Below, piece by piece: positions 40,007-62,567 of a stretch of 64,000 nt of DNA. The first letter of the stretch is position 1. Every line of letters starts with the position of its first letter. Made by a program: the position numbers and the translations under genes. The stretch lies in IMG/VR virus record IMGVR_UViG_2565956520_000001, one strand, 5' to 3'. The notes under the pieces were generated by a model. The model saw only the letters and a program-made list of their open reading frames with translations. It made no database searches and was not told where the DNA came from. Source of the stretch: a virus. Its lineage: Duplodnaviria > Caudoviricetes.

Positions 40007-40033
40007 TATTTAGCTCTAAACCCTTGAAATAAT

Positions 40034-40234: not shown

Positions 40235-40239
40235 AAAAA

Positions 40240-43679: not shown

Positions 43680-43821
43680 GAAAACCTCCGTTTTGTTTTG
43701 CTTTATTCCTCGCCGGAATACAGAATCACTTCCATTTTCCGGCCAGAAATAAAACTTGCCAAATCTGCAAACATAACCACCTGAAATAATGGCTTTATGA
43801 TTAGAAAACCCAACATTGCCA

Positions 43822-44145: not shown

Positions 44146-44531
44146 GCTACCCTCGCTTTTGGGCCGGTCTTTTGAGCTTTTGTAGGTAGAGGAACCAGAT
44201 GTTTTGGAATTTTAAAACCCTCTTCACCTAACTCTACACTGCAAAGTTTCTCGTAAACAGATAGCTTTGTGTACTGGCTATTCAAAAACTGGGACAGCTG
44301 CTGAGGAGTAATATCTAGCTCTTTAGCTACATCCTTTTTTTTAATTCCATTGGCCACAAACCATGCATCCAAAGCACGCTTTCTGCTTTGACTGAGATTA
44401 TCGTTTAGTGCTAAAGACAAAAGTGCTCCCAAGTTATCGGTTACAGGGTGTTTGTTCAAAGGCCACCCCGAGTAACTAAATATTAATTTAACTCTAAAGT
44501 TGTGATTATCCAACTTACTACTAAAAATCAA
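44142..44531 (-). CDS. Cro-like XRE HTH protein (start uncertain)
   Basis: NGIKKKDVAKELDITPQQLSQFLN HTH. Confidence 0.7.
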   Translation of the reverse strand: MIFSSKLDNHNFRVKLIFSYSGWPLNKHPVTDNLGALLSLALNDNLSQSRKRALDAWFVANGIKKKDVAKELDITPQQLSQFLNSQYTKLSVYEKLCSVELGEEGFKIPKHLVPLPTKAQKTGPKARVA

Positions 44532-44547
44532 GAAGAAAAGTAGATTT

Positions 44548-44937
44548 ATGAAAGACTTTATAGGAGATGGCTTCCCAGAACGCCTTCAACAGATCATAGA
44601 TTCTAAAGAATGGAACAAGGGTGAATTTGCCAAAGTAGGTGATGTTACAGGAAAAAGTATGTCCACTTATGTTGGTGGTACTGCTTTGCCTAAAGCGAAG
44701 ACTTTGGCGAACTGGGGTACTTTTGCAGATATAAGTATTGATTGGCTGCTGCTTGGCCGTGGTGAAATGTACTATTCTAAAAGAGCTAAAGAAGAATTAG
44801 ATCCTATAATTCGCAGAATCCACGAAACACGGAAAGTTCTTGAAGAGCTAGGGGCAGACCCTGAAACCATCCAACAAGCGATTCTGAACATCACTAAAAG
44901 CTCAGGTGATGAGCTTCAAGAAAATTTCGCGAGTTAA
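44548..44937 (+). CDS. XRE-family repressor
   Basis: ERLQ.II......K.EFAK..DVT..S.S.Y..G...P....L.......SIDWLLLGRG pattern. Confidence 0.82.
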   Translation: MKDFIGDGFPERLQQIIDSKEWNKGEFAKVGDVTGKSMSTYVGGTALPKAKTLANWGTFADISIDWLLLGRGEMYYSKRAKEELDPIIRRIHETRKVLEELGADPETIQQAILNITKSSGDELQENFAS

Positions 44938-44950
44938 AGAAAAAAGAATA

Positions 44951-44996
44951 CCCCTTCTGGTTCAAAGGATTGTTTGGACCGGAGGGGGAAATTTTT
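44951..44996 (+). terminator. Terminator after the repressor gene
   Basis: 16-bp stem (with G-U pairs) CCCCTTCTGGTTCAAA / TTTGGACCGGAGGGGG followed by a T run. Confidence 0.65.
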
Positions 44997-45119
44997 TAGG
45001 ATTTGATATAGGTAGTTGGATTGAAATATGGAATAAGCATTGACAATTATAAGTATAATGACTCTAACAAAATTGAAATTGAAAACAATTATTTTTACAT
45101 TCTAACATACACAAATACT

Positions 45120-46709
45120 ATGAAATCAATACAAGTTGAAAATCTAAAAAGTCTTGTCAAAACACCTAAAATTGAAATTAAACCTATTACTATTCTTGTT
45201 GGCAAAAATAGCAGTGGGAAAAGCACCTTTTTAAGAACCTTCCCACTTTTTAAACAGAGCGTAGAGGAAAACATAAAAGCTCCAATACTTTTTTGTGGAA
45301 ACTATGTAGATTTTGGTGAATTTGGTGAAATCAGAAATAAGAGCACTAAAAATGATTCTATAACATTCACTATTGAATCAGAAATTGATCAAAAATCGCT
45401 ACTAAATAATGCTTATAGATATAGTTTTAACTTAAGCAAATTTATGGATCAAAATAGTAATGAAATTCTTCCTATAAAATTCATATCAAAAATAAAAAAC
45501 AAAGTAAAAAATGTCCGTAATACTTATTTAGAATCTTTTAAAATATCTATAGCAGACCAGAATTTAGACTTTAAATTTGACGAAGACTCGAAGTTGATTG
45601 ATCTCAATATTAATGATGAAAGCTTTAAAGATTTTTTAGCTGACATATATAGTACAAATTCTGGATTAGTACCGAATCTCATAACTAAAATATCCTTAGA
45701 TAAAAATTACATATACAGCCATAGCTGGGTCTTTCCGCAATTCCAGGAACAATCTCGTTACGAACGCTTGGTGAAAATAATTAAGAAACACGTCTATAAT
45801 ACAACTAGTGATGAAAATATTGCCGACATTGTGCGCTCCATATCAATCGGATCCAAATCTTTCACCTTATCAAGCTGTAAAAACGATTTTCTAAAAACTA
45901 AAACTTGGATTAAAAAAGCTAAAACGTGGACTACCGATTCCAAAGAATTTCAAAGCGTTAACAATGCTTTATTGTTTGAAAATTTTATGAGTATGGTAAA
46001 TTTTATTGGTAACCATTTTAAATTATACTCTCAAAGAATTAACTATATAAGTCCTTTTAGAGCTTCTCCAGAAAGGTACTATCGCCATCAAGAATTAGCT
46101 GTCCATAACATAGATCCGCAAGGTAAAAATACAGCAATATTCCTTGACAATCTAACCAACAGGCAAAAAAAGAATTTAGAAGAATGGACCGACAACAATT
46201 TTGATATAAAACTTAAAACAACATACAAATCAGGTCATCTTTCTATTGAACTTAAAGAGAATAAATCTGATTTTTACATAAATATTGCTGACATAGGATT
46301 TGGTTATTCTCAACTTCTGCCTATTATTATCCAACTTTGGTTCAAAACTACTAAAGATCATAAAGACATAATCTTTGAAACTGGATACGAAACATTCGCT
46401 ATTGAGCAGCCAGAGTTGCACCTACACCCTAAAATGATAGGTCATTTTACGGATTTACTAGTAAAACTGATATCTTCAAATCATTTAAAAGAAACAAATA
46501 TAAAACTAATTATCGAAACTCATAGCAAGTCACTTATTAATAGAATTGGTCAACACATAGCTAAAAAAAACATTACTCCTGACTCAGTAAACGTAGTTAT
46601 ATTCGACAATAAAAACGGCTACGAATCAAACATAGACATTGCCAAATTCAATGATAAAGGAATGTTAAATAACTGGCCTGCTAATTTCTTTCTTCCGGAG
46701 CGATTTTAA
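45120..46709 (+). CDS. ABC/AAA_15-type ATPase with a DUF3696-like C-terminus (defence-type)
   Basis: GKNSSGKS Walker A, IGFGYSQLLP signature, IEQPELHLHP Walker B, IETHS H-loop and C-terminal G.L.NWP..FF. The ORF track starts at 45021. Confidence 0.85.
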   Translation: MKSIQVENLKSLVKTPKIEIKPITILVGKNSSGKSTFLRTFPLFKQSVEENIKAPILFCGNYVDFGEFGEIRNKSTKNDSITFTIESEIDQKSLLNNAYRYSFNLSKFMDQNSNEILPIKFISKIKNKVKNVRNTYLESFKISIADQNLDFKFDEDSKLIDLNINDESFKDFLADIYSTNSGLVPNLITKISLDKNYIYSHSWVFPQFQEQSRYERLVKIIKKHVYNTTSDENIADIVRSISIGSKSFTLSSCKNDFLKTKTWIKKAKTWTTDSKEFQSVNNALLFENFMSMVNFIGNHFKLYSQRINYISPFRASPERYYRHQELAVHNIDPQGKNTAIFLDNLTNRQKKNLEEWTDNNFDIKLKTTYKSGHLSIELKENKSDFYINIADIGFGYSQLLPIIIQLWFKTTKDHKDIIFETGYETFAIEQPELHLHPKMIGHFTDLLVKLISSNHLKETNIKLIIETHSKSLINRIGQHIAKKNITPDSVNVVIFDNKNGYESNIDIAKFNDKGMLNNWPANFFLPERF

Positions 46710-46710
46710 A

Positions 46711-47850
46711 ATGATTTTTGAAATTGACTCCAGCATATCTGATTTTCTTAAAAATGAGACCGGAAATCGTGATTTAACCATGAAATGTTTAAAGAAGGTC
46801 GAGGCTCTTCTATTAAATGCTAGCGATGGAAAAAATGTTATCTTTTTTGAAGATATTGAAATTATAGAATCATTAATTGACTGCGGAAAATTTTCAGAAC
46901 CGACGGGTTATTTCCTTGAATACCTAAGAGAAAACTTTGCATCTACAGGATCATTTATAGAATTAACAAGTAGACACATCAAAATTGTTTTAGAATGTGA
47001 ACCCGAAATCATTATTAACGACAAAAATCATACTGTAGTAACATTACCTATTTTTAAACTCGATCAATCTTTTTTTGGTAAAAGCGTGCTGCTAACAGAA
47101 AATCTGGTAGACGGTAAATTTTATAAGAGAATGACACAGTGTTATTGCAAAAATTACGGACAAAATATAGATTTTGATTTTGAACTAAAACATGGCGGTG
47201 GCAACAGCACAGGGACAGTATTTAAAGAAACTTTTAACAATCAAGATAAAAATTGCTTATGCATTGTTGATTCTGATAAATCTCACCCCGAATGTAACTT
47301 TAAAGAAACGGCTAAATCAGTTTTAGACGAGCATAACAATTCAGATTTAGCTAAATTTATATCCGACTTCTACATCTTAGAAGTAAAAGAGGCTGAAAAT
47401 TTGATCCCAACGGAAGTCATCGAAAAAGTAATCGATCCTCAACAAACTGATAATTTTAATACTTATAAAAGTTTAAGTAACGAGGGCGCACAATTTTTTG
47501 ACTGCAAAAAAGGAATTAATCGACGGTCTTTTTCAAAAAATAGAGATCAACTTCATCTCGAGTTTTGGAGAAAAGAGCTTGAAGGAATTGATCCAAATGC
47601 AAATGACTTTTTATCCCAAATTGCCAATAAACCTGCGGGTTGCATGACAAACTGTACAGGTTGCCTTAATAGAAATTGCAAGCAACCTTACTGCGGAGGA
47701 ATTGGAAGCAAAATCTTAGATAACTCTATTGATATAATCAATAATGACGAACAATACTCATTACGCGAGAATATTCAAAAAGAATGGGAAACCATTGCTA
47801 AGAAAATAATTACTTGGTCAATTGTTCAACCAGAATATCGATTTTCATAA
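46711..47850 (+). CDS. TOPRIM-like nuclease partner of the ATPase
   Basis: LLTEN..D, HGGG, IVDSD (DxD) and EAENLIP motifs in OLD/TOPRIM order. Starts 2 nt after the ATPase stop. Confidence 0.6.
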   Translation: MIFEIDSSISDFLKNETGNRDLTMKCLKKVEALLLNASDGKNVIFFEDIEIIESLIDCGKFSEPTGYFLEYLRENFASTGSFIELTSRHIKIVLECEPEIIINDKNHTVVTLPIFKLDQSFFGKSVLLTENLVDGKFYKRMTQCYCKNYGQNIDFDFELKHGGGNSTGTVFKETFNNQDKNCLCIVDSDKSHPECNFKETAKSVLDEHNNSDLAKFISDFYILEVKEAENLIPTEVIEKVIDPQQTDNFNTYKSLSNEGAQFFDCKKGINRRSFSKNRDQLHLEFWRKELEGIDPNANDFLSQIANKPAGCMTNCTGCLNRNCKQPYCGGIGSKILDNSIDIINNDEQYSLRENIQKEWETIAKKIITWSIVQPEYRFS

Positions 47851-47886
47851 ATTTTTAAGAAATAATACGAGAAATACTATCCATAT

Positions 47887-48582
47887 CTAGCGATTAAATT
47901 CAAACGGATCAGGAACATTCTCATAGAACACCTGTTCCAGCTCATGCAGATCAACTTTGAAATATTCTCTTTTGCGGTTAATTCTGCAAGCATCTAGTTT
48001 GACATGAAGTAACTGTTCGGTCTGGAATGGCTCCATGCACTTAAAATAAAACTCAACCTTAAAAGGCATAGGGACTCCTGTCCCACTCCCGTCACGGCCT
48101 TTGTACAGATCTTCTGCTCTTCTATGTGGACAATGCTTTGTATATCCAACTTTATACAATCCCGGCATTGCGGGATTAGAAAGGCAATACACACAGCCCT
48201 CATATTCAATTTCACGCCACGCGCTAGGGGTAAAAACTTGCCGTGCAGTTGGAGTAAAAACGACATTTTTATTTGTAAGCAGTTTTGGTTTTACAATGTC
48301 ATCCTCTACAGCCTTTCTCTCCTGAATATTCACATCAGGCATACTTCGGTTGACTGAAACAGGAAAAAACCTTGATTCAAGATGGTTATAGCTTTTAAAG
48401 TATCCCCACAAAACCAAGATAACCCCAACAATTTCGGCAATGGATTCAAACCCCTGACCTAGCAATGGAGTAATTATCAAGTCTGATATATTTACCCCGA
48501 ATATCAAACCACAATATATTGCAAAGACAAAACCACATACTCCAAAAATCCAGTCCCATAATAACTTAAAAAAATAGCGCAT
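47887..48582 (-). CDS. Membrane-anchored T5orf172 (GIY-YIG-like) domain protein
   Basis: Two N-terminal TM helices; VYCLSNP.MPGLYKVGYT...R...L...TGVP.PF...EQ..H..L..R....REYF. Confidence 0.82.
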   Translation of the reverse strand: MRYFFKLLWDWIFGVCGFVFAIYCGLIFGVNISDLIITPLLGQGFESIAEIVGVILVLWGYFKSYNHLESRFFPVSVNRSMPDVNIQERKAVEDDIVKPKLLTNKNVVFTPTARQVFTPSAWREIEYEGCVYCLSNPAMPGLYKVGYTKHCPHRRAEDLYKGRDGSGTGVPMPFKVEFYFKCMEPFQTEQLLHVKLDACRINRKREYFKVDLHELEQVFYENVPDPFEFNR

Positions 48583-48674
48583 TATAGCAGTCCTTTACAC
48601 CGAGAATACTCACAAGATTGTATGCCAACAAGAACCTATTTTTAAACAATATTCACCATAATCAGCAAGACAAC

Positions 48675-48709
48675 AAAAAAAGCCGGAACGCACGACGGCA
48701 GTTCCGGCT
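48675..48709 (-). terminator. Terminator for the minus-strand Hailong-like operon
   Basis: AGCCGGAAC / GTTCCGGCT stem with an adjacent A7 tract (T7 on the minus strand). Confidence 0.7.
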
Positions 48710-48852
48710 ATATCTTTATTAAGATATATTTCAATACCATCAACACATAAAGCGGCAATAGTTAAAGACTCTACATCATACACTCAAAAAGACTTTCCGA
48801 CTCACATGAAACACACTGAATATTCATTTCATAATACTTGAGTGATTTACAA

Positions 48853-49155
48853 TTAATTTTCTGAACAAAAGTAGTCTTCTAATCCTTCAATCTGCCTATT
48901 CACTGCATTTTCAAGTTCAACATACTCACCAGTTATCTGCTGCTGACTTTGGTTCGCCAAAAAAAGAAGACTGCTAGATAATCCTTGAATCAACAAGACC
49001 AATTTGTCGTTTTGATCCAATTTATTCTTTAGCACCCACCTAGAAATTGAATTCTGCGACAAACCAAAAAGAGGTTCGCTGCTATCTAAAAAACGATCAT
49101 TAATGATCGTTAAAACACACCGTTGTTTATTAAGACGACTTTTAAAATCACCCAT
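48853..49155 (-). CDS. Hypothetical protein, 100 aa, translationally coupled to the NTase
   Basis: Its ATG lies within TAT GGG TGA at the NTase end, with GAGGT upstream. Confidence 0.7.
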   Translation of the reverse strand: MGDFKSRLNKQRCVLTIINDRFLDSSEPLFGLSQNSISRWVLKNKLDQNDKLVLLIQGLSSSLLFLANQSQQQITGEYVELENAVNRQIEGLEDYFCSEN

Positions 49156-49777
49156 AAAAACTATCTACCTCCTTTATCAATCTTCTCATCCAATCATCAA
49201 CGATAGGTAAAGAATCAATCGTTTCACAAATCAATTCTCTAGATGGAACACTTCCTACCCCACGAACACTAAGAATCCGTGCAGACTGTAAGCATTCATA
49301 TGCGTTCTTGGAAATGATCAAACTTTTTTCAGCCAACTCCAAAGCCGAATTTCTCGAAAAAGTTGGTTTAGTACCTAAGGCCAACGAATAGCAAGTTGCT
49401 AGATTCCTTACTGCCAAAAAAAGCGTTGAAAGCTCAAACACCTGACTATTAGTTATTTTTACAGTAGCCCTAGCAACTTCGAAAATATTGTAGAATTTCC
49501 TACAATCACTTATCGAAGAAGTATATTTATTCGGCATGCCCAAAGACTCAATGTAATCTATACCATCTTCTGAATACAACAGCCTAGATTCATAATAAAG
49601 ATGCCATGCAAAAGGATTTCCTTGCTTCCAAAGTAATTTAATTTTTTCCGGTGAATAGATAGAAAATGTTAGCGGATCAATGCGAGACAAATTAGTGTCT
49701 ACAATGGCCAACAAATCAATATCAGAACTTAAATCAATTTCACCTCGACAGACTGACCCAAAAGCATAAATGTGCAT
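49148..49777 (-). CDS. Pol-beta-family nucleotidyltransferase, Hailong HalB-like
   Basis: YAFGS..RG..D..SD.DLL motif, helical C-terminal domain, and a terminus ...SFYG with a penultimate Tyr. Confidence 0.75.
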   Translation of the reverse strand: MHIYAFGSVCRGEIDLSSDIDLLAIVDTNLSRIDPLTFSIYSPEKIKLLWKQGNPFAWHLYYESRLLYSEDGIDYIESLGMPNKYTSSISDCRKFYNIFEVARATVKITNSQVFELSTLFLAVRNLATCYSLALGTKPTFSRNSALELAEKSLIISKNAYECLQSARILSVRGVGSVPSRELICETIDSLPIVDDWMRRLIKEVDSFYG

Positions 49778-49778
49778 T

Positions 49779-50594
49779 TTATCTTTTATTAAACCTTTTA
49801 AGAATTATTGACATAAAAAATCCAAACATAACTAGTCGAACGAATTTTATCACTGTTAAGGATACAGAACTATAGCTTTTAGGGGAGAATGTGCCTAAAA
49901 ATATTTGTGGAGCCACCTCCACCGACTCCCATAATTCAGAAACGAGTTTTGATTCGGTATGATATATAAAATTAAAAAAAGCGATGCTCACGAACACCAG
50001 CCCCACAGCTCTACACAATTTATATGTACTTTCACCATTTCCCCAAATAAAATCTAAGCTAATAAAATTAACATAGCTCATAAAAGATTTTAGACGAGCA
50101 AAGCCTTTATATTTTCTCCTATAGTAAGACTCTTTAGAAAGACATGACTTACGTAGATGAACCTTAGTAGATTCTAGTTCTATCTTTATTGCCTTATTAA
50201 CTGACTGGACTTCGCCCAGAGATTGATAATTTTTACGTAAAGTTCGTGCAAATGAACTTTTTAAATTATCATATGCAGGACAACATACATCAAGAATTTC
50301 ACTAGTGATAATTGTTTTATCAAAGTAAGAATAATCAAAAGAGCATCCTTCAAACGTGCTACCATTAAAATTTGAATTAATAAAACGACATCCAGTAAAA
50401 TTACATGAATCAAAATTGCAATTTCTTAGATACGAAGAATCAAATATACAGTATTTGAAATCAACTTCTTTAAAAGTTTTCCCCTTTACAACTAGCCGCA
50501 AAAATAATTTATTAGCTAAATCTATATTTGCAAGATCCTCATTTATTTTTTTATCTGTTTCAATAATCCTATCGCTATCGGTTAGAATATCCAT
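49779..50594 (-). CDS. Pentapeptide-repeat + 2-TM pore-loop membrane protein, Hailong HalA-like
   Basis: Pentapeptide repeats (FKEVD FKYCI FDSSY LRNCN FDSCN FTGCR FINSN FNGST), then WGNGE, TM1, a pore-like segment and TM2. Confidence 0.75.
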   Translation of the reverse strand: MDILTDSDRIIETDKKINEDLANIDLANKLFLRLVVKGKTFKEVDFKYCIFDSSYLRNCNFDSCNFTGCRFINSNFNGSTFEGCSFDYSYFDKTIITSEILDVCCPAYDNLKSSFARTLRKNYQSLGEVQSVNKAIKIELESTKVHLRKSCLSKESYYRRKYKGFARLKSFMSYVNFISLDFIWGNGESTYKLCRAVGLVFVSIAFFNFIYHTESKLVSELWESVEVAPQIFLGTFSPKSYSSVSLTVIKFVRLVMFGFFMSIILKRFNKR

Positions 50595-50673
50595 AATCTA
50601 TTTAAGCCTTGATTTAGATGTTAAAATCAACCTTTCTTTTAAGAAGAACTAACCTGTTATAATAAAATCAACT

Positions 50674-51399
50674 CTATAATTTATCAACATTAAGAATAGA
50701 ATATAAATCAATTTCTTTTGGATCTAAACCTGCGAGATGCAAAGCAATCTGAGCCTTAACAACAGCAGAAATATCCTTATTTTCAATACTCTCAACTAAA
50801 CATTGAGATTTCAACATTTGATTATCAGACCTCAACCTATCGTAAAGAGCAGTTGCTCTTTCTCTAGTTTGCTCAGACTGTTTAAAGAATAACAGCGCAA
50901 CACCATCAATTACAACTCCAGGCATAATTTGCATATAGCTACTAAAAACATCTGGTGAAATTAATGCTGCTTTATAGATTATCAAAACAAAACCAACAGT
51001 AGCAGCTACTACACTAAACCAAAATTGAACTTTAGCTTGAGCAAGAGCCTGATGATGATAACCTTTAACAAGATCTTGAATAACCCTTCCGTCATAATTG
51101 AGCGTTTCATTAACTCCTCGCCCCAACTCGCTGGATCTATTCAAACCAGCCCTTCCCCCAGCAGCCATACCGCAACCGGCCACTTCCCCACTACTAAAGT
51201 CATCAGTTTTTTTTACCTTTAAAACTTGGGATTTTGCCTTCTCAGCAATGCTTTCTATCTCGTCTTCTTTCTCTTTTTGTTGCTTTCGATAAAATGAAGA
51301 GAGTAGAGAAGTTACTAGTCCTAAGACAGCAGATATCAATCCAGCCATAATTGTTACAACAGATTCAGATGCTAGCGAAGCGACTATATCCAAGCTCAT
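50674..51399 (-). CDS. Membrane protein resembling the TRADD-N-associated 2-TM domain
   Basis: YH.QALAQA..QFWFS..AA..GF..II...G...D.VA.LFF.Q pattern, recalled from that family and not verified. Confidence 0.5.
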   Translation of the reverse strand: MSLDIVASLASESVVTIMAGLISAVLGLVTSLLSSFYRKQQKEKEDEIESIAEKAKSQVLKVKKTDDFSSGEVAGCGMAAGGRAGLNRSSELGRGVNETLNYDGRVIQDLVKGYHHQALAQAKVQFWFSVVAATVGFVLIIYKAALISPDVFSSYMQIMPGVVIDGVALLFFKQSEQTRERATALYDRLRSDNQMLKSQCLVESIENKDISAVVKAQIALHLAGLDPKEIDLYSILNVDKL

Positions 51400-52064: not shown

Positions 52065-55000
52065 TCACTTCATAACCCGCCTCACAACCAGATTCCGCTT
52101 CTCCAAAAGACCATCAATCCGCACCCGCTTCTCATCAGGTGTAAGCTTCCTGGAACGATGAATCTGTCGCATAGCAGTTTCAATCTGAGCAAGCGCACGG
52201 CGTAGCTGATTGTATGGCTGGCGTTTAGCAAGAATCTTTCTGTTATCCGGATCTTTCACCAGAGCTTTGGCTTTATCCGCTTCGCCAGTTTTTGCGTAGT
52301 TCATTACCGTTGAATAGAGTTCATCGGCTTGCTCAACCATGTCGTACAATTCTGTCAGATGGCAGCTATGCCTTGAGGGTGTAGATCTAAAGAAACTTTT
52401 AATTAGCGGCATGTCGTCTAGACGTCTGGACGGCAATTCCGGTGCATCCACCATTTCGCGGGTTACAATGTCCGCCATGCTCATCACGTAAACACCCAGC
52501 GTTCCGAAATAGCCATTAACAAGATGCTCGATGCGCTTAGGACTAGTTCCTGTCTTCTCACCAATCAAAGCTGCTGTCTCGCTGGTACGATGATCGCGTT
52601 GCGCTCCAGGCTGAAGCCTTTTCAAACGCATAGGAACGATCGCTCTGCCAGTGAAGAAACTCTTGTCTGCCCACTGCTCAAGAATCGGCGTTACAATCTG
52701 CGGAGTGCCTACAGAGAATGTCTGCGTCAGCATAAACTGAAGACGTTCACGAAGCAGATCCCCGTCCTTACCATCCAGCGAATACTCGGTTAACCTTTCC
52801 GGAAGAGTTCCAAATATGGCTCCAATCTCAAAAGGTTTAGGCATTCTGAAATGTTTTTCATCCACAAAGAAGTGATAGTAATTGTCCCGATCCCAATGTT
52901 CCAGTCCCTTAAATTCTTCCCGATCCCGATTATTCAGATAGAGCAACACAGAAGCCAGCGCGACCATTGCGCCCTTGGTCATAAATCCGGACGGATTCTC
53001 ATACGCCCCTCTACCCAATCTATTCAGCCCGACCATTCTTGCACCGAAGAACGGGACAGTTTCACAAAGGAACCGTGTGGCCAGCCAGTCACCGCCCATG
53101 GAATAATCCATGATGTCCTTGGCTTCATACGCAGCTTCAAGATGACTACCGCCCTTTTTCTTTACACCTTCATAAAGGCGCGCACGGGTCGCATTCTCAA
53201 ATGCAGAACCTAAGTCCTGCCATTTCATCCAGCCCAGTTTAGCAAAGTTGGCCAACTTTTTAGGAGTATCGAGAATTGAGTCACGATCAATTTTATGCTT
53301 CTTTACCAGCTTCTCAACCAACAGCTTTGCAGCCGCAGGATCATGCCCAAAAGCATAACCACCATGGAAAGCTGCTCCGGCGGCCATCATTTTAATAGTG
53401 TCTTCATCCTTACTCAGAGTTTTGATTGCACCCTTGAATGACCCGACCACAGGCAAAAAAGTTCCAGTCCGATCGACGCCCCAACCGTGGACCGTATCGC
53501 GCACAAGGTTGCGAACCATGAAGTCAGGAGTGGAAGTAATTCCAGTTGTAAGCATCCGCTTAAACAGCCGAGCTGTTTTCATTCCGAAGTTATTCCAGCT
53601 CTGCATATTTACCGAAGTCAGCGATCGGAGCAGGAGCGGATCAGCGATGTGGTAATAGACAGGCTTGCCGTCACGAAGCACAGAAACAACATCCTTTGCA
53701 TCCGGCTTTACCATCCTAAAAACAGTCTGCAATGAATCACGCTGCGCCTTGGTCATTTTGGCAACAGCATCTTCATCCCCGAACACTTTAACCAAGGAAG
53801 AGCGCAAAGCCTGCCCCTTCAGCTTAAGTGCTTCCCACTTAAATTCTGCATTGGTTGCAATGCCGATATTCTCAGCATGAACCATGGAAAGTTCCATAGC
53901 TCTGTTCTTCACAGAAGTGTCGATCAAATGCGAAAAGTTGCGGATGATATTTTCAAACGGATCACCGAGATTCGAAGTTCCACCCCGTAGCCGGCGAATG
54001 CCAGAATACTGATTTGCAATTCCCTTGCTACCGTGTGGCGACTTAACACTTGCCTTCTCTTCACCAGTTTCATTGATACGATAGAAAGGAATATACTCGT
54101 CATGTTCCCAAAGAGTGCGACCAGCTGCGTTAATAACTCCGGCATCCTGAGCAAAGTCCAGAACCTTGGTTTTGAACTCGATATACTTCTTCTGAACCGC
54201 TTCATATTGCGCTTCACGGCCAGAATTCAGTTTGCAAAGTTCATCTATTTCCTCTTCGGTAAACAGATTCTCGCGCCCTTCAGCCATAAGCTTTTTAGCT
54301 CGAAGCCCCACAAGCCAGCCAGTGAATCTATCCAACTCATGTGCAACCGGCTCAAATATCGTTGCCAGCCCTTCGCCCTCAACATCCATAGCCCCTTCAC
54401 GCCAGATAGGTGCGCCGTGCTCGATGACAGCCGCAATCTGATCAGCATGTGAAGTAGACATTCTAGCCGCCACATAAGCGGACTCTTCCATATCCGTAAC
54501 TCCAGCCGCTTTATCAAGATCCTTGAGCGAATCAAAACGATCAAACATGCCCTGGTTAAACTCAGTGGCCATAAATTCACGAATGCGCCCTATGCGTTCA
54601 CCAATGGTAGTTTTTTCTTTAACTTGTCCGATCTTGGCCATAGCAGATTCACGAACAGGATTTGAACGGGAATAAGAAACGGCTTCAGCTCCACCTCTAG
54701 GTGAAGGAGAATGTAAACCGTCACCTTGCACTGTCCAGAAAACAGCATCAGCAACTATACGGTTAATCTCACGGCGAGTCAGCGAACCGGGCAGACGTAT
54801 GCGAAGCTTGGCCAGCCATTTCATGACGGCATCAACAACCTTACGCCACACCCCTTTTTCACGCTGAGTCAGAACCTTATTCTGATCCACCTTTTCAGCA
54901 AGCTGAGCCAAATATTCATGACTGGCCATATCTCTGCCGGAATCAGTGGCAAGATCAAAATCGTAATCCAAAGCTATATCTTTAAATTCTTTACTACGCT

Positions 55001-58000
55001 TTGCAGATCTCCCAACCTTGCGGAGCATCTGCACATAATCGCTGTCACCAAGAAGCCCACGCAATCCGTGATGCGCTCCTTGTTCATGCATCCAGAGTTC
55101 CACGGCCCGTTTGCGTGAAGAAATGTTCTCCGCAACCATCCAGACCTTTCCGGTCTTAGGATCATTGCAGGCTTCACAATAGCCGCCACCCTGCGCATTA
55201 AATGCCTTACGGATATGTTCAGGAAGATCTTCGAAAAGACTAACCACTTCCAAAGGCAGCGCGTTTTCAGCTCGTGCCTGAAGTTCCTGCACAGCTCCGC
55301 GCACGGATCTAACAGAAGTAGGATTACGAATAGTGGATGTCTTGGAGAAATGGATTGGATTATCAGAATCTGAGGATTGACGTTTAGACGCTTTGACGTC
55401 TTGACGTCCTGACGTTGTGCCGCTTTGACGGTCGGACGGCTTGCCGCTTTGTTGGCTTGCATACTCTGCGAGTACGGAAACAAGGGAATCACGGACTTTT
55501 TGAATATCTCTAAAATAACGGCTCGACTGATCATGTTTACCAAACACAGCCAGAACCTTATCAATCATGCGGCGTATTTTACGAGCTACACGGCGAAAAA
55601 GAGTAGGGTTTGCAGCTTCCAGTTCATGCCAGAAATCAGGGTCCATGAACTGTTCACCGGATAAATTGCCAAGCAGCTCTTCATTAGCTTGCCCTGAAGA
55701 CAACCCCTTTCCACCCGCTTTTCTAGTCGTGGCGTCAATATCTTTATGAAACCCACGCCAAGCTTCACCTTTGCGCTGAGACTGAGCAACCATAAGATAT
55801 TTATTGTAAAGAGCCGGGGCATCACGCTTTAAAAAATGGATTATTTCGTGACCAAGAAGGAAAAGATGGGGTTCATTGGCATCTGGGCGCATAAAGACAA
55901 CGCCCTGTTTTAGATCCGCATGAGCATCACCTGGGAGAATAGGTAGATCAGAAGCTACATAAGTAATTTCCTTACCGAACAAACCAGCAAGCTTGTCCAA
56001 CAAAGCAAAATCACCAGTTCTTACTCCTGACTCACTCTTTACTGATGCTGCTGGCAGGCTTCCTGTTTCAGTCTCTCGCTTTCTTCCGCCCCTAGAATCT
56101 GTTCCGGACGGAATTCCTTGCGTTTCTGTGAACTGACTTTCAGCCTCTCGAGTCTGGCTGCCTCCTGCTCTGCTACTTCCTCTGGATCTGGAAACGGAAA
56201 CATGCAAGTCAACCGGGTCGACTTCGAAGATGGATCCATCTGCGAATTCGAGTCCGTATTCCCTGCGGATTTTTTCCGCGTAAATATCTGTTCGTCTTGT
56301 TCTTCGTGGGTTTTCATAACTACTCCGCTTAACGAGATCAATATCACCAAGTGAAGCCGGAAGTCTATCCAGTTCTTGAGCTATACTTTCAAGCGGATTT
56401 TCACCCTGATAGAAAGCCCAGCCCTTTTCGGTTCTGTTCCATTTGGCTCCGGCATCCTTCAGAACTTTTTTGTTAGCATACGTCTCGCCAGTGACTACCC
56501 AGAAACCACCTTTTGAATTCGTAATTCTTTCCAGTTCAAGACCGGCATCATTAAATATAGTCTCGCTATCAACTGTCTTAACGAATCTTTCTGGAGCTGT
56601 TACGTCCTGAATCCGCTCAAATAGTTCTTCAACTTTGCCAGCGTTAAAATCAATTCTTGATTTGGTCTGTAAATTCTCAGCACCTTCGCTAACCTTATCA
56701 ATTATGACGATTCTGGTTTTAACTTTAGTACCGGCACGACCGAAAGTCTCAGGAGGTAAACCGAATTCGGCAACCTTATGCGCGTGCTCTGCTTCCTCAG
56801 ATTCATACCACTTATCAAACTTGCGATCTGCCGCCGGACCTTCAGGGAGAATACAAACAACTCGGCCACCCTCACGTAAATGAATGAATGCTTTGGCAAG
56901 ATGATCAACCGCCATTTTGCCACCGCTACCAAACGGCGGATTCATGGCGATCCCGTCAAACTTATTTACGGCCGCAAGAGTTTCAAACTGATCATTGATT
57001 TTGCGCCCGTCACAAATAACAGACATCTTGGAAAACAATTCGTCAGAAGGTTCAACTACCGTTATCTCAGCTGATTCAGGAAAGTACCTGGCAATAGCGC
57101 CATGTCCGGCTGAAGGCTCCAGAACAGATTGCCCAGGCAACAGATTTAACCATTCAGCCATCTTAAAACCTAGCGGTTCAGGAGTAGCGAAATAGTCCGC
57201 GCCTTCTCTGGCCTTGTTGCGTGAGGTCCGCTTTTGCTGGGAATAGTAATGGGTTTTAGCCTGATCGAATGGAGAAGACTTGCCGCTAAATGAATCTGAC
57301 TCTTTGCCTCCCTGCCCTTGTTTCATGCTGGGAGAGCTTGAAGATGAATCAAGATATCCTTCACGAAAAGCAGTACGCAGATCACGGGCAAGATCACCCA
57401 TTGCAAGATTCTCAGCTGCTCCGGCACGTTCAGAAATTTTCTGCCCAAACGCTCTGGACTCAAAAGAAAGCCCAGTCTTCAGATACTCAATAACTGCGTC
57501 TGACTTTAGGCCGAGGCGATATATCCGTCCTTCAGTTTGAATTGCATCAGTGGGCTTTGTGGGCAGGTAAAGCGAAACTAGAGCGCGCTGTTTCTCACCA
57601 GCTTTATCATGCAGTGAAATTCCTTCCTTCCCTGCATCCTTCTGAACAACAATGACATCAACACCGCTCCGATCGTCATTGAAATCATTAACAGCTTTAA
57701 TTCGATCCCTCTTAGACTCTTTACCGGAAAAGAATGCAGCCTTATCAGTGAAAGCCTTGTTCATTTCATCGCGCACATTCAAAAGACCACGCAGATCCAT
57801 CCGTGAATATGCCGGATTGCTTGCAGCCCAAGCATCAAACTGCTTCATAATTTTGGGATCACCACTTGCAAACCTTGCAAATCGTGCTCGATTAAATGGA
57901 TGATCCGGAAGACCTTTATTTCTAGAATGGAAAACAACAACCTTTCGGCCAATATCCAGATGCTGTTGAACCCTCTCAACCGCATTCTTGGCTTTCAATG

Positions 58001-61000
58001 CCTCCAGCAAACTCATGGTGTAATGGTAGTCAAAAGCCTTATGTACTATTCCAGATAAGGCTGGATATTTTTTATGATCCCACATGGATTCGATCCCGGA
58101 CTGAATCCTTTGCCCCAGCTCAGCCGGAACATCTACGAACTGCCGTGAATAATCTTTATCTAGATTCAAACTCCGACCGGAAAGCGCACCTTTCTTTTTC
58201 AACCACTCATTGAACGCCCTTTCCATCAATGCGGAATCAACACCGGCTTCAGGAGTCGTAAGTTTATTGTAGCGCATTCTGTAGCCGAACTTGCTCATCA
58301 TAAACTGATCCCAGTTCGATCCACTGTTATATGAACTGTTGGTGTCGCCACCTTTACCCATATCGCTATCAAACAAAAAACCGTCCGCATAACGAATCGT
58401 TTTATCGTAGGCAAAAGGAGAAGCAGAAAGGAATACAACCTTGGTATTCATGATGCGGGCTACTTTGTCATCGATGCGCTTCAGCAGTGCTTCAGATAGA
58501 TATTTGTCGGGGATGTTCCAAGGAGTTTCTTCAAAATTCTCAGTGAGCTTAAAATCCTTTAGCTTTTTGGCTTCCTTCAGCATGTCACTTTGAAAGACTT
58601 TTCTAGCACTGATATCAGGACGATTTGGTCCAGCCAGCCTGTGCATCATATTCAAAGCATGGGTATCATTACCCTGAGCATTTTCGCAAAGTTTGTGGGA
58701 TTCATCGAATACGAGAAGATCAAAGTCACGAGCAAACAAGGCTTCGTTCTGCCCAAAATTAGCATAGCTTGTGACAATAATGCCTTCACCAGAATCTTTA
58801 AGACCTTCAAGCTGGGTAATATCAAGGTGAAGATTTTGACCGTCTTCAATCCAATCCTGAGCTTTTTTATCGGTCGGAACAACTACGGCTATATTTGTCT
58901 TACCCTGCCGGACAAAACGCTTCATAACACCGAGTCCGGTGTACGTTTTTCCCGTACCAGTCCCGTTGGTGAAAATGATTCCACGGTTTGTATCATCTTT
59001 AGTATTGGAAAAACGTGCTTCAGCTTTGGCAACGTCTTCCTGTTGCTCCGAAAAGAGAACGGGAAGAGTTTCGCGAATATTGCTTAGATCTTCAGTGCGA
59101 ACCTGAGTGGAGGAATCCGCTTCTTGTTGAAGACGGACTTTATCGGCTAACGGTAAATGTTGATCTGTAGATGTTTTTCGAAGGGCATCGCCCACACTTC
59201 CAGAGAGTTCGCTGGATAATCCGGACTTAGATCCCTGAGCTGTTCCTGATGCTCTGGAGTCAGTCGATTTTCCAGCGTCATCAGTTCTATGGATTCTTCC
59301 AGGCTCAACAGTTCCGGAAGCGCGTTCCGCAGTTCCATCCGGCCGCTCTGTTCCAGATATGCTGTTATCGCTTCCCGTTCCAGTAGAAGAGGTAGAACCT
59401 GAGTGTAGGAGGTTATCGTCTTGCTCAAGTAACCCTGTTTCTCCATATCGTTCTCCATTTCCTGAATCACTAGATCCGCCAGTTCCGGACTCGCCGGAAA
59501 CAGTCCCTTCGCCCAGTTGGTTCTGAGTTTTTGAGTCTGAGCTATCTGATTCCAAATGGCTTGAGGTACTTGATACATCTTTAATAATCTCCTTCTTGTC
59601 ATTTATACTCTCAATAAAAGCCTTGTCAAAACTTTCTTCCGGCTTCGGAATAGACACACCGGGAAGTAGCCCCTGACCGCCATCCGTCATACTTGCAAAT
59701 TTTGCATATTCTTCACAAAAAAACTGGAACTTCTGTGCTTTTACACCTTCCCATTGTCTTGCTCCCAACGCATCAGCAAGAACTCTTGTCTTCTTATCAT
59801 TTAAGCCGGGAACAGTTTCAATAAGTTGTCCCTGATTAAGAAACTGCTTAACCGAAATAGATTCACTTCTGGCTTTTCCGGCAATCCTTAAAGCATCTTG
59901 AATAGGGGAATTAAGACTCCAACCTTCCCCTCTACTATTTGCCTGAATAAGGGCAGGTAAAGCTCTATCCAACTTAGCTAAAGCAGATGGAGGAGCCATA
60001 TCAAGAACATCATAGTTATCAACCACAACACCACGCAAGGTAGACTCAACAAAATCTTTTCCATCACTGTTTAAAAGTCCGGTTTCTTTGTTGAACAAAC
60101 GTCCATGCTGTGTATCCTCAATTACACCATCATTTTTTAAACTACTGACAAAATCAGTTGATCTTGTTGAATCAAGAAACTGACGCAAAGTATCAAAAGA
60201 ACCGAGTCCACGGCCAAGACTAGCAAGGGAATCTCTGGAGAGCATCCTTCCACGCGAAACAGCTTCAGCTTTTGGATCCAATCCTTGAGTAAAATCCTGA
60301 TTGTAGATTCTGGAGGATCTGGAAAGGTCATTTACTTCATCCTGAAGGACTCTAACCAAAACAGGATTTTTCATTGTTTTGAGCTCTTCAGGCTTAAGGC
60401 CAAACTGTTTAGCCTTTCGTCTTAGCGTATTCTTATACTTAGTAGACTGGCCATTATCCTGGTCATAAGCGAGAGCCAAAGACATAATACGGGAATTACC
60501 GCCAAGCGTAATTCCATCAGAAGTAATAATCGGAGGACCACTTGCAGCTGTAGGATTATCATTTATAAAGTGACGAGGCTTAAGCGGTGAAGCATGTTTT
60601 TTAACCTTTTGCTGCTCAGCTGCATCAGAGTGATAAGGGCGTTCCTGCGCTTCTTTAGGATATGAAGGATGTCTGATAAAATTTTTATGAACGTCATGAG
60701 AAGGCACGACGTCTTCAAGTTCTCGAACTTCATACCTAATTGCATCTTGCCCGTCTGTATGTTCCAGCACAGATTCATTACCTTTTAAGCCTGCCGTCTT
60801 GACGTCAAGACGTTCTGACGGCAAACCGCCTGTAACTTCGTCTTGCAATTCCTGAACAGCAGTATCAAAAACGTCTTCACTTCCCAGCTCCGGCAAAGCA
60901 TCAAGCTCTGACGTCTGGACGTCTGGACGGTTTAACGGCAAAGCGTCTTGCTGCCCTGACGCTTCAATAACCTCCGGACTTTCAAGCTGTTCCAGTTCAC

Positions 61001-62567
61001 GCACGGCAATATCCCATACGTCTTCCAGAGATCCGCCCTGATCTCTGTTAGAACTCACTCCTTCATGCTGCTGAAGATCATAATCAGGCTGAGACACAAC
61101 CTCCGGATCCGCGCCTCTAAATAGATCTTCCCGTTCAAACGGAGTATAAACATCAGGCTCCTGCGAAGGTGACAGCGAACTTGAATCATCAAAAGACGAT
61201 GGCCGCCAGCCATCGCGCATTGCCATTTCACGCTCAATGCGGACCTCAAGCTCCGGTTCAGGCTTGAATCTGTAACGTTCCTGAATGTCACCTTTCAGGC
61301 CAGCCATACCTTGCGGAGTCTCGTGCTCAGAATCAATTAAATCTATCGGTCCGGATTCTTTTAGCGTTTCTTTGCCAAGTATTTTTTCCTGCTTTCCATA
61401 GAACTCACTCATTTTTTGAACAGGAGTACGGGTATCGGGCGCAGCGGCTTTTTCAGGTTGAACAGTTTTATCATCAGCAAGCAGATCAACAGTCATTCCC
61501 TGCTTAACCTGTTCGATGTTGGCTATCATCTTATCATCAGAAACCTTGGTTTCCTCAGACAATCCGGCAGGACCAGACATGACCGAACCGCCTGCGCCTG
61601 TCAGTGCAGCCGGACCAATAACGTTCACACCTTCTTTGGCGGCCTGCTTCACGCGCTCAAAAACACCGGGTTTCATTTCCCCGGTCGTTATATAATGAGC
61701 AAGATCCTTTGAAATAGACTCAGTCGGCTCTTCTGCCCATTCGCTAATTCCTTCGACAGCCCCAGAACTAACATGCTTGGCTGTTTTAGCTGCAACACCT
61801 TGCCCAGCTTTGGAGAACATTTTCCCAAATGAAACTGCATTCAGCCCCGCACTGGCCAAAGACATCATTTCACCAGCACGAGCTGCTTCCTCTTCACTGC
61901 CGCCTTTCTCTAAAACTTCACGGTATGTGCTGGAACCTTCCATAGCACCACCGCCTGCTCCAGCTCCAACAGCCTGCCCGATCCGCGCAAGCCGCTCGAT
62001 AAGTTGCGGGGTTAGACTCATAGCCTTACCACCAATATTAATAAGCTTACCCACTGCCGCACCAGGAATCATGGCCGCGCCAAGTGAAGGCGCAAGATTA
62101 CCAATCTGAGAAGTCCACCAATCGCCCTTGGCTAAAAGTGATGGATCATCCATCACGTTACCTTGTAGACGTTTAGGAGCTGCGTAAGATTCACGCACAG
62201 GCTTATAATAGTCAGCGATCGACTCACCGGCTTCAGCAACAGAATCACTTCCAATGCGGTTACCCAGCCATTGCATACCGCCACCGAACGATTCACCAAG
62301 TCCGGCTTGGCCAGCAGCAACACCGCGCCCCATTTCAACAACAGGAGCGACAAGTGGATCAAACATTCCGAATCCATATCCTGCGTCATCACCAGCTGGG
62401 GAATCTTTTGGAATTAGTTCAGGACCATTCTGATTTGTAGTTTCAAAAGAATAAACCGGACTTCCCTTTTCAGGAGAGTCCGGCATTACATTCTTTCTAT
62501 TTCCTTCTGCTTGCAGTTCACTGACAGCCTGATCGAAAAGTGTATTCATATCCATATTAACCACCAT
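52065..62567 (-). CDS. Large polyvalent protein, 3500 aa (ParB-like, SF2 helicase, N6-adenine methyltransferase, HExxH-type and LPD38-like C-terminal regions)
   Basis: Uninterrupted ORF. GTGTGKT (about 58950), FDESH (about 58700), QTEGRIYR, VLEPSAGHG, NPPF (56931-56942), HEIIH (55836-55850), and a GPP...DG...GGNSR ParB-like motif. The LPD38 assignment is from recall. Confidence 0.85.
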   Translation of the reverse strand: MVVNMDMNTLFDQAVSELQAEGNRKNVMPDSPEKGSPVYSFETTNQNGPELIPKDSPAGDDAGYGFGMFDPLVAPVVEMGRGVAAGQAGLGESFGGGMQWLGNRIGSDSVAEAGESIADYYKPVRESYAAPKRLQGNVMDDPSLLAKGDWWTSQIGNLAPSLGAAMIPGAAVGKLINIGGKAMSLTPQLIERLARIGQAVGAGAGGGAMEGSSTYREVLEKGGSEEEAARAGEMMSLASAGLNAVSFGKMFSKAGQGVAAKTAKHVSSGAVEGISEWAEEPTESISKDLAHYITTGEMKPGVFERVKQAAKEGVNVIGPAALTGAGGSVMSGPAGLSEETKVSDDKMIANIEQVKQGMTVDLLADDKTVQPEKAAAPDTRTPVQKMSEFYGKQEKILGKETLKESGPIDLIDSEHETPQGMAGLKGDIQERYRFKPEPELEVRIEREMAMRDGWRPSSFDDSSSLSPSQEPDVYTPFEREDLFRGADPEVVSQPDYDLQQHEGVSSNRDQGGSLEDVWDIAVRELEQLESPEVIEASGQQDALPLNRPDVQTSELDALPELGSEDVFDTAVQELQDEVTGGLPSERLDVKTAGLKGNESVLEHTDGQDAIRYEVRELEDVVPSHDVHKNFIRHPSYPKEAQERPYHSDAAEQQKVKKHASPLKPRHFINDNPTAASGPPIITSDGITLGGNSRIMSLALAYDQDNGQSTKYKNTLRRKAKQFGLKPEELKTMKNPVLVRVLQDEVNDLSRSSRIYNQDFTQGLDPKAEAVSRGRMLSRDSLASLGRGLGSFDTLRQFLDSTRSTDFVSSLKNDGVIEDTQHGRLFNKETGLLNSDGKDFVESTLRGVVVDNYDVLDMAPPSALAKLDRALPALIQANSRGEGWSLNSPIQDALRIAGKARSESISVKQFLNQGQLIETVPGLNDKKTRVLADALGARQWEGVKAQKFQFFCEEYAKFASMTDGGQGLLPGVSIPKPEESFDKAFIESINDKKEIIKDVSSTSSHLESDSSDSKTQNQLGEGTVSGESGTGGSSDSGNGERYGETGLLEQDDNLLHSGSTSSTGTGSDNSISGTERPDGTAERASGTVEPGRIHRTDDAGKSTDSRASGTAQGSKSGLSSELSGSVGDALRKTSTDQHLPLADKVRLQQEADSSTQVRTEDLSNIRETLPVLFSEQQEDVAKAEARFSNTKDDTNRGIIFTNGTGTGKTYTGLGVMKRFVRQGKTNIAVVVPTDKKAQDWIEDGQNLHLDITQLEGLKDSGEGIIVTSYANFGQNEALFARDFDLLVFDESHKLCENAQGNDTHALNMMHRLAGPNRPDISARKVFQSDMLKEAKKLKDFKLTENFEETPWNIPDKYLSEALLKRIDDKVARIMNTKVVFLSASPFAYDKTIRYADGFLFDSDMGKGGDTNSSYNSGSNWDQFMMSKFGYRMRYNKLTTPEAGVDSALMERAFNEWLKKKGALSGRSLNLDKDYSRQFVDVPAELGQRIQSGIESMWDHKKYPALSGIVHKAFDYHYTMSLLEALKAKNAVERVQQHLDIGRKVVVFHSRNKGLPDHPFNRARFARFASGDPKIMKQFDAWAASNPAYSRMDLRGLLNVRDEMNKAFTDKAAFFSGKESKRDRIKAVNDFNDDRSGVDVIVVQKDAGKEGISLHDKAGEKQRALVSLYLPTKPTDAIQTEGRIYRLGLKSDAVIEYLKTGLSFESRAFGQKISERAGAAENLAMGDLARDLRTAFREGYLDSSSSSPSMKQGQGGKESDSFSGKSSPFDQAKTHYYSQQKRTSRNKAREGADYFATPEPLGFKMAEWLNLLPGQSVLEPSAGHGAIARYFPESAEITVVEPSDELFSKMSVICDGRKINDQFETLAAVNKFDGIAMNPPFGSGGKMAVDHLAKAFIHLREGGRVVCILPEGPAADRKFDKWYESEEAEHAHKVAEFGLPPETFGRAGTKVKTRIVIIDKVSEGAENLQTKSRIDFNAGKVEELFERIQDVTAPERFVKTVDSETIFNDAGLELERITNSKGGFWVVTGETYANKKVLKDAGAKWNRTEKGWAFYQGENPLESIAQELDRLPASLGDIDLVKRSSYENPRRTRRTDIYAEKIRREYGLEFADGSIFEVDPVDLHVSVSRSRGSSRAGGSQTREAESQFTETQGIPSGTDSRGGRKRETETGSLPAASVKSESGVRTGDFALLDKLAGLFGKEITYVASDLPILPGDAHADLKQGVVFMRPDANEPHLFLLGHEIIHFLKRDAPALYNKYLMVAQSQRKGEAWRGFHKDIDATTRKAGGKGLSSGQANEELLGNLSGEQFMDPDFWHELEAANPTLFRRVARKIRRMIDKVLAVFGKHDQSSRYFRDIQKVRDSLVSVLAEYASQQSGKPSDRQSGTTSGRQDVKASKRQSSDSDNPIHFSKTSTIRNPTSVRSVRGAVQELQARAENALPLEVVSLFEDLPEHIRKAFNAQGGGYCEACNDPKTGKVWMVAENISSRKRAVELWMHEQGAHHGLRGLLGDSDYVQMLRKVGRSAKRSKEFKDIALDYDFDLATDSGRDMASHEYLAQLAEKVDQNKVLTQREKGVWRKVVDAVMKWLAKLRIRLPGSLTRREINRIVADAVFWTVQGDGLHSPSPRGGAEAVSYSRSNPVRESAMAKIGQVKEKTTIGERIGRIREFMATEFNQGMFDRFDSLKDLDKAAGVTDMEESAYVAARMSTSHADQIAAVIEHGAPIWREGAMDVEGEGLATIFEPVAHELDRFTGWLVGLRAKKLMAEGRENLFTEEEIDELCKLNSGREAQYEAVQKKYIEFKTKVLDFAQDAGVINAAGRTLWEHDEYIPFYRINETGEEKASVKSPHGSKGIANQYSGIRRLRGGTSNLGDPFENIIRNFSHLIDTSVKNRAMELSMVHAENIGIATNAEFKWEALKLKGQALRSSLVKVFGDEDAVAKMTKAQRDSLQTVFRMVKPDAKDVVSVLRDGKPVYYHIADPLLLRSLTSVNMQSWNNFGMKTARLFKRMLTTGITSTPDFMVRNLVRDTVHGWGVDRTGTFLPVVGSFKGAIKTLSKDEDTIKMMAAGAAFHGGYAFGHDPAAAKLLVEKLVKKHKIDRDSILDTPKKLANFAKLGWMKWQDLGSAFENATRARLYEGVKKKGGSHLEAAYEAKDIMDYSMGGDWLATRFLCETVPFFGARMVGLNRLGRGAYENPSGFMTKGAMVALASVLLYLNNRDREEFKGLEHWDRDNYYHFFVDEKHFRMPKPFEIGAIFGTLPERLTEYSLDGKDGDLLRERLQFMLTQTFSVGTPQIVTPILEQWADKSFFTGRAIVPMRLKRLQPGAQRDHRTSETAALIGEKTGTSPKRIEHLVNGYFGTLGVYVMSMADIVTREMVDAPELPSRRLDDMPLIKSFFRSTPSRHSCHLTELYDMVEQADELYSTVMNYAKTGEADKAKALVKDPDNRKILAKRQPYNQLRRALAQIETAMRQIHRSRKLTPDEKRVRIDGLLEKRNLVVRRVMK
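52413..52436. repeat. Short 8-bp-period array (3 units)
   Basis: gtcgtcta gacgtctg gacggcaa. Confidence 0.45.
55379..55458. repeat. 8-bp-period array (about 10 units) inside the giant gene
   Basis: gacgttta gacgcttt gacgtctt gacgtcct gacgttgt gccgcttt gacggtcg gacggctt gccgcttt gttggctt. Confidence 0.8.
56039..56317 (-). CDS. Possible overprinted 92-aa ORF in the +1 frame of the giant gene
   Basis: GGAG-N5-ATG at 56317; charged helical C-terminal half; overlies a low-complexity linker of the host frame. Confidence 0.35.
   Translation of the reverse strand: MKTHEEQDEQIFTRKKSAGNTDSNSQMDPSSKSTRLTCMFPFPDPEEVAEQEAARLERLKVSSQKRKEFRPEQILGAEESERLKQEACQQHQ
59147..59578 (-). CDS. Overprinted 143-aa gene in the +1 frame of the giant gene
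   Basis: AAGGAG-N10-ATG; protein-like helical sequence MYQVPQAIWNQIAQTQKLRTNWAKGLF...; the host frame over the same span is an S/G/T/D/E low-complexity linker. Confidence 0.7.
   Translation of the reverse strand: MYQVPQAIWNQIAQTQKLRTNWAKGLFPASPELADLVIQEMENDMEKQGYLSKTITSYTQVLPLLLEREAITAYLEQSGRMELRNALPELLSLEESIELMTLENRLTPEHQEQLRDLSPDYPANSLEVWAMPFEKHLQINIYR
60793..60832. repeat. 8-bp-period array (5 units) inside the giant gene
   Basis: gccgtctt gacgtcaa gacgttct gacggcaa accgcctg. Confidence 0.7.
60910..60965. repeat. 8-bp-period array (7 units) inside the giant gene
   Basis: gacgtctg gacgtctg gacggttt aacggcaa agcgtctt gctgccct gacgcttc. Confidence 0.7.

Follow-up and report, generated by a model that had tools for sequence, protein, structure and literature searches.

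The 64,000-nt stretch of tailed-phage DNA analysed here (IMG/VR record IMGVR_UViG_2565956520_000001; hereafter "the window") carries, on its minus strand, a gene for a phage-type polyvalent (DarB-like) protein of 3500 amino acids (aa; 52065..62567), and within this gene a second open reading frame (ORF) of 143 codons (59147..59578, minus strand). Comparison with related sequences indicates that the shorter ORF is very probably a real, selected and separately initiated dual-coding gene. It would thus be a genuine coding gene that lies wholly within the DarB-like polyvalent gene of a Maridesulfovibrio mobile or phage element, one base out of frame, and its protein would most likely be made on its own from a conserved Shine-Dalgarno (SD) motif and ATG. 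The predicted product is an all-helical globular domain of ~120 residues with a short variable tail, and the family to which it belongs is uncharacterised. In the giant frame, these nucleotides would be translated into a low-complexity spacer right before a SNF2-like helicase/N6-adenine methylase module. The stretch appears to be genuinely coding in both frames, and of the two partners the small gene is the one under constraint and probably the older.

The small gene extends from an ATG at 59578-59576 to a TAG at 59149-59147. It occupies the +1 frame of the giant gene, i.e. position 1 of its codons is host codon position 2, and it covers host residues 997-1140. An SD-like AAGGAG (59589..59594, minus strand) is separated from the ATG by 10 nt, and a TAA at 59603..59605 (minus strand), 8 codons 5′ of the conserved ATG, closes the small frame upstream. 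An earlier sequence-only reading of the window had placed a nested gene here, and its coordinates were borne out, including the motif at 59594-59589, the 10-nt gap, the ATG at 59578, the +1 frame and the length of 143 aa. The ORF listing puts the start at an earlier ATG (59602, giving 151 aa), which is not kept in the orthologues. A promoter scan upstream of the small gene did not find a sigma-70-like site on the coding strand.

Selection on the embedded frame

The window was compared with three other Maridesulfovibrio genomes that carry the giant gene. The orthologues are 66-69% identical over a 533-aa query spanning the ORF, and the giant frame is open over its full length in all three. The alignment of the overlap is free of gaps in the four genomes, and the upstream stop, the ATG, the length of 143 codons and the TAG are identical. 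The +1 stop codons in close relatives that would have spoken against a nested gene were therefore absent from all four genomes. The distance between GGAG and the ATG is constant among the four; the neighbouring bases vary.

Within the overlap, the small frame shows identities of 66-79%, versus 50-61% for the host frame. The pairwise differences at host codon positions 1, 2 and 3 are 0.37, 0.21 and 0.13 in the overlap, compared with about 0.13, 0.10 and 0.45 elsewhere, and the overlap is the sole region among 3320 gap-free codons in which position 3 is not the most variable. Naive ratios of nonsynonymous to synonymous substitution rates (dN/dS) were calculated for both frames. The value for the small frame in the overlap is 0.185, whereas the host frame has a value of 1.71 in the overlap and of 0.10-0.17 in the flanking regions; a +1 control inside the helicase yielded 2.9. 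This frame-specific comparison, which had been proposed as a check of the nested gene, indicates that purifying selection acts on the +1 frame.

Protein family and distribution of the embedding

An exhaustive phmmer search against 1.84 billion representatives was needed to find relatives of the small protein, none of which had been retrieved by a word-indexed protein search. It gave 341 matches at E<=1e-3, including 115 at E<=1e-10. Most of the matching proteins have a length of 120-140 aa, and their residue 1 aligns to the ATG at 59578. Conserved family positions include W9, N10, P63, L64, E67, A70, I71, and P88. The AlphaFold2 (AF2) model of the 143-aa product is all-helical, with a predicted local distance difference test score (pLDDT) of 89.2 and a predicted template modelling score (pTM) of 0.81, and is confident for residues 1-120. 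According to this model, residues 1-120 form a conserved all-helical globular domain and residues 121-143 a variable tail. A globular product had been expected from the sequence, and the confident helical model agrees with this expectation.

No consistent family match was obtained among 82 members in Pfam, NCBIfam, and PHROGs. A profile search of PDB with the family had a best E of 0.019, which is not significant, and Foldseek comparison of the model with PDB and BFVD gave only values of E>0.7, without a convincing fold match. The same is true for the VIA wide fold search, with a best Z of 4.1. No hit above 0.89 was retrieved in a protein atlas search, and no match was obtained when phage and plasmid collections were searched with the region by blastn.

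The embedding was analysed at further loci. On IMG/VR contigs, all 37 homologues (32-44% identity) are embedded in the +1 frame of a longer ORF, which has 1300-4900 codons. The same arrangement, inside ORFs of 577-4286 codons, was found for nine of ten homologues at genome loci, while the tenth is cut by the contig end; the hosts of these loci include Polaromonas, Rhodoferax, Methylomonas, and Chryseolinea. Six cultured phages have a homologue, i.e. Skulduggery (gp28), Parlo (gp081), Vibrio D274, Vibrio 1.232.O, Ruegeria 45A6, and Klebsiella ZX1. For Skulduggery and Parlo, the embedding in a giant coding sequence (CDS) was confirmed on full reading. With tblastn, a single annotated feature underlies the match in each of the six phages and the small gene is annotated in none of them, in line with the suspicion of the sequence-only reading that standard annotation would miss it. 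In the five records other than that of 1.232.O, this feature is one giant CDS of 9.5-11.7 kb. Taken together, these sequences indicate that phages and prophages from several bacterial phyla have kept this arrangement.

The position relative to the helicase domain is nearly constant. The Walker A motif follows 44-65 aa past the small-ORF stop at 47 of 49 loci; in the window, it is GTGKT at 58944..58958 (minus strand), 65 codons past the stop. The distance from the giant-gene start to the small ORF ranges from 218 to 2098 codons across loci, and the upstream domains vary. Three independent clusters show the flip of the substitution phase as well, and so do two of four closely related pairs. The remaining two pairs hardly differ within the overlap, while flanking third positions differ by 16-40%. 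In detail, the pair L021/L022 has 0 nucleotide differences in 135 overlap codons, and the pair L065/L066 has <2% in 125. This near-identity may be the ultra-conservation expected for dual coding, or it may reflect a recent exchange of the segment.

The small gene is not a general attribute of DarB-like genes. A six-frame profile search did not reveal a family match in Bcep22 gp75, in the P1 darB region, or in a second Maridesulfovibrio giant gene, showing that not every DarB-like gene carries it. Among 401 genomes of the window's class, a homologue was found only in the four Maridesulfovibrio genomes. One locus, on a contig of a metagenome-assembled genome (L078:4155-4800), has a different organization. 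The family gene heads an operon and has a 54-aa N-terminal extension, and a giant helicase-RadC-LPD38 frame opens just 15 codons before the family Met, with no ATG before the motif that leads into the helicase domain. The giant protein of L078 seems to start inside the overlap, without upstream modules.

Initiation, read-through and chance openness

An ATG is present within at most 3 codons of model position 1 at all 49 loci. An SD-like match of at least 4 nt at positions -18 to -5 was found for 93% of the 44 non-identical loci, compared with a background of 25%. The small frame is closed by a stop 0-88 codons upstream of the conserved ATG, and in nine loci this stop directly abuts the ATG. 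These features bear on programmed frameshifting, in which no separate protein is made and either a +1 shift yields an N-terminal product ending in the small domain or a -1 shift yields a domain-helicase fusion. Frameshifting would be compatible with the end of the small ORF always lying just before the helicase domain, and also with locus L078, where no ATG occurs from the opening of the giant frame up to the conserved helicase motif. Against it stand the conserved ATG and SD motif and the stops so close to the start; moreover, the free-standing homologues described below begin at the same Met, and in-phase slippery heptamers in the last 45 codons are confined to two of 44 loci. Because of the stops abutting the ATG and the near absence of slippery heptamers, independent initiation fits better, and we regard frameshifting as improbable.

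The host frame shows the opposite behaviour of the small frame. Across the overlap it encodes a spacer (59147..59579, minus strand; host aa 997-1140) that is open but not conserved in sequence, and 81% of the residues are polar or small (S31, G23, T16, D14, and E11 of 153), in line with the S/G/T/D/E linker described by the sequence-only reading. An AF2 model of the host-frame segment has no secondary structure over the overlap, but it is a poor model (mean pLDDT 37, four-sequence alignment) and adds little. When the small protein was kept fixed and its codons were resampled, 9-11 host-frame stops were expected, and not one of 5000 resamples remained open, whichever of the four genomes was used. 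Another 46 loci (37 from IMG/VR and 9 from genomes) likewise have an open host frame, while stops are present in that frame in the free-standing homologues.

These results argue against the view that the giant ORF is not read through, i.e. that the locus consists of three successive genes, the small one lying between an upstream gene and that of the helicase, and that the host frame is open incidentally. This view would explain that the host frame of the overlap evolves like an off-frame, as both its naive dN/dS and its codon-usage fit (-0.18) suggest, and that the giant frame opens just 15-300 codons upstream of the small gene in some loci. Yet it leaves the missing stops unexplained, and the host frame has no ATG right past the small-gene stop, where the conserved helicase-leader motif begins at once. 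We regard it as very improbable. The sequence comparisons indicate instead that both frames are maintained, and that the host frame is held open while its amino acid sequence drifts freely. The leader motif itself, approximately D-N-I-R-x-T-L-P ... Q-Q-E-D-V in the host frame, is found at 59072-59146 (minus strand) of the window, directly past the small-gene stop and leading into the helicase domain; it is conserved at the equivalent position in nearly all loci.

A single genome would not have sufficed to demonstrate a real gene. After synonymous resampling of the giant gene, 66% of the trials had an uninterrupted +1 run of 151 codons or more somewhere in the gene, and the small-ORF segment itself stayed open in 14%. 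Openness in one sequence therefore has no evidential weight, because equally long +1 runs often arise. The linker has few hydrophobic residues and hence few T at codon position 2 (13% in the host-frame overlap versus 25% in the whole giant gene), and a +1 frame is expected to be open under these conditions. Codon shuffling within the segment, which gave P=0.0004 for the absence of stops, was not used because the segment had been picked for being open. The same giant gene contains a longer +1 ORF of 196 codons (54974-55564, minus strand; host aa 2334-2531). In the orthologue comparison its host-frame third-position variation is normal and there is no selection signal; hence this ORF is due to chance, and it is useful as an internal control.

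The composition asymmetry between the two frames had been taken by the sequence-only reading as a signature of selection on the alternative frame. Selection on the +1 frame was indeed revealed by the orthologues, but the asymmetry in one sequence is no evidence on its own. A chance ORF, a composition by-product of the hydrophobic-poor linker that encodes nothing, would be in accord with the low T content, the resampling results and the longer ORF without selection. It is refuted by the comparative data, and its probability is close to nil: four diverged orthologues agree exactly in start, stop and length, the phase flips to +1 only in the overlap, where the small-frame dN/dS is low, the family has 341 members and a confident fold, and the same embedding spot recurs in >45 loci at 32-44% identity. 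These data lift the ORF far above chance. Just as improbable is a nucleic-acid element (an RNA structure or DNA site) in the linker as the cause of conservation in place of a second protein, which would suit the near-identical overlap nucleotides of the otherwise diverged pairs L021/L022 and L065/L066, but not the clean three-base phase of variation in the +1 register, the amino acid similarity that is still seen at 32-44% identity, a distance at which the DNA can no longer be aligned, the confident protein fold, or the free-standing protein homologues.

In summary of the core proposal, a small gene nested in a polyvalent gene, the selection in the +1 frame, the conserved start, stop and SD motif, the large family and the confident fold all concur with it.

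Origin, function and genomic setting

The search for stand-alone homologues, another check that had been suggested, was successful. For five homologues (L013 and L074-L077), it was confirmed that they are free-standing and that the host frame is broken. They are located in small integrase/AlpA/primase-helicase islands, which look like phage satellites or small integrative elements. Codon usage was compared for the two frames of the overlap. The small frame has a fit of 0.108 and the host frame one of -0.182, compared with 0.226 for normal coding and -0.166 for an off-frame control. The codon usage, the low-complexity host frame and the separate homologues favour the small gene as the original reading and the spacer as a later read-through. 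The idea that the small gene was engulfed by read-through is thus in agreement with the codon usage and the disordered host frame; it is not proven.

Several family members are longer. Ten of them (190-566 aa) were scanned with Pfam, and the sole domain was DUF6794, in one protein; the longer members all lack similarity to the giant protein. A free-standing member of 362 aa (L070:8529-9617) has the family domain at residues 1-119. It is encoded directly upstream of a type I restriction-modification cluster with inserted DarT and Macro genes, in the order hsdM, hsdS, DarT, Macro, and hsdR. A 566-aa protein in an integrative element (L071:3562-5262) contains the complete family domain twice, matches it weakly and in part a third time, and carries DUF6794 at its C-terminus.

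The giant protein has several conflict-related domains in one polypeptide. A DdrB-ParB domain (aa 610-741; Pfam ddrB-ParB, 1.3e-19) precedes the spacer, and a ResIII/SNF2-like helicase (from about aa 1171; Pfam ResIII, 4.5e-11), an N6A-methylase-like region (aa 1763-1965), and LPD38 (aa 3217-3389; Pfam, 3.9e-39) follow it. Both Pfam and PHROG matches support the assignment, the PHROG families being those of methyltransferases and helicases. In this respect it is like the phage-type polyvalent proteins defined by Iyer et al. 2017 (PMC5512222), in which many such domains are united in one giant phage or prophage polypeptide. In a text search of that paper, neither overlapping nor frameshift turned up, and the only passage with "reading frame" deals with neighbouring small ORFs rather than with an out-of-frame gene within a polyvalent gene. 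In the open-access literature, no description of an out-of-frame gene inside polyvalent or DarB-like genes was found.

The tight positional link to the helicase-methylase module suggests a small cofactor. Tentatively, the small protein might be an accessory factor of this module, e.g. for assembly, capsid targeting or control; the sequence-only reading had thought of a possible chaperone, inhibitor or partner. The closest analogy is Ulx of phage P1, a 17-kDa protein that is encoded next to darB and aids the localisation of DarB, according to a table of virion proteins (PMC9024508). Ulx and the product of the small gene (about 14-16 kDa) are both small proteins encoded next to a helicase/methylase anti-restriction protein, which in the case of DarB is packaged into the capsid. 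In contrast to the embedded small gene, ulx is separate from darB, without any overlap, and follows it downstream. A DarB-like relative, gp69 of phage JC1, was found in virions by mass spectrometry (PMC9144972). The phage group of JC1 is without the small gene (Bcep22 was searched), and virion packaging is known only for relatives.

A somewhat more doubtful proposal is that giant polyvalent genes grow by engulfing a small gene already present. Upstream modules would become fused to the helicase-methylase module by reading through in another frame, which would leave the small gene intact and give rise to a disordered linker, and the engulfed protein would act either as an indispensable cofactor produced in cis or as a novel counter-defence factor. 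If this is true, the mRNA position just ahead of the helicase domain would couple the synthesis of the small protein to that of its partner.

Several points weigh against the overall interpretation. Naive dN/dS values are biased where genes overlap, and the loci are mutually related, so that the counts overstate independence. Many of the 341 matches are probably embedded copies that were called by accident on contigs of 1-3 kb, and these are not independent proof of a stand-alone gene. Separate translation is inferred from the sequence, and a look through sequencing runs listed no RNA run with this stretch. The functional guess derives from position and analogy. Ulx and the small protein have no similarity (hhalign probability 0.2%; BLASTP E 7.5). 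Lastly, the fold resembles nothing known, and the structure does not provide a functional lead.

DNA mimicry of the Ocr/ArdA type was also considered. T7 Ocr is likewise a small helical protein in an anti-restriction context. No similarity to Ocr was detected with hhalign, and Ocr is absent from the fold matches, which does not exclude a likeness of the folds. The idea is weakened by the only mildly acidic charge of the family, with a median of -5 and a range of -15 to +6, which is not the strongly negative charge of a DNA mimic.

In lambda-like phages, the spanin gene Rz1 is embedded in Rz, each of the two has its own start, and both products are functional. Like Rz1, the small gene is complete and shares its strand with the enclosing tailed-phage gene, relative to which it is in the +1 frame. 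The Rz1 protein is a short lipoprotein rich in proline, and its host gene is of ordinary size, whereas the embedded product described here is globular and conserved, and the host frame, part of a 3500-aa polyvalent protein, is unconstrained and of low complexity; the two systems have no relation in sequence or function. The embedded Rz1 is noted in PMC9144972 and PMC6606913. The overprinted genes of small viruses such as phiX174 have been reviewed (PMC8227390), and a bias of the younger overlapping frames towards disorder has been described (bioRxiv 10.1101/229690). Overprinting of the phiX174 type resembles the present case in that two frames of one strand are used, one ordered and the other rich in disorder. 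In contrast to such viruses, the double-stranded DNA phages and prophages discussed here have ~50-65 kb and are under no obvious size pressure, and it is the long host gene that appears to carry the younger frame over the overlap.

The small gene would add a conserved, well-folded family to widespread phages and prophages of ~50-65 kb, one that phage annotation has so far overlooked. Linkers within giant phage genes can conceal long out-of-frame genes, beyond the reach of gene callers, and this is a blind spot of annotation. At least one polyvalent-protein linker appears to be the shadow of another gene, which bears on the evolutionary assembly of giant proteins. The biology of DarB-like ejected proteins is poorly understood, and the small gene can be knocked out with the giant protein unchanged. 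Among its carriers are Pseudomonas Skulduggery, Serratia Parlo, and Klebsiella ZX1, all of them cultured phages amenable to genetic work.

The region downstream of the giant gene (38825-51399 of the window) contains a series of accessory genes. Starting next to the giant gene, it comprises genes for a TRADD-N-associated transmembrane protein (50674-51399), a pentapeptide-repeat protein (49779-50594), a nucleotidyltransferase (49148-49777), a T5orf172 protein (47887-48582), an AAA_15/AAA_21 ATPase with a 379-aa partner (45021-47850), a ParA-like protein (42526-43275), and an integrase (38825-39961). The ATPase and its partner may be a defence system.

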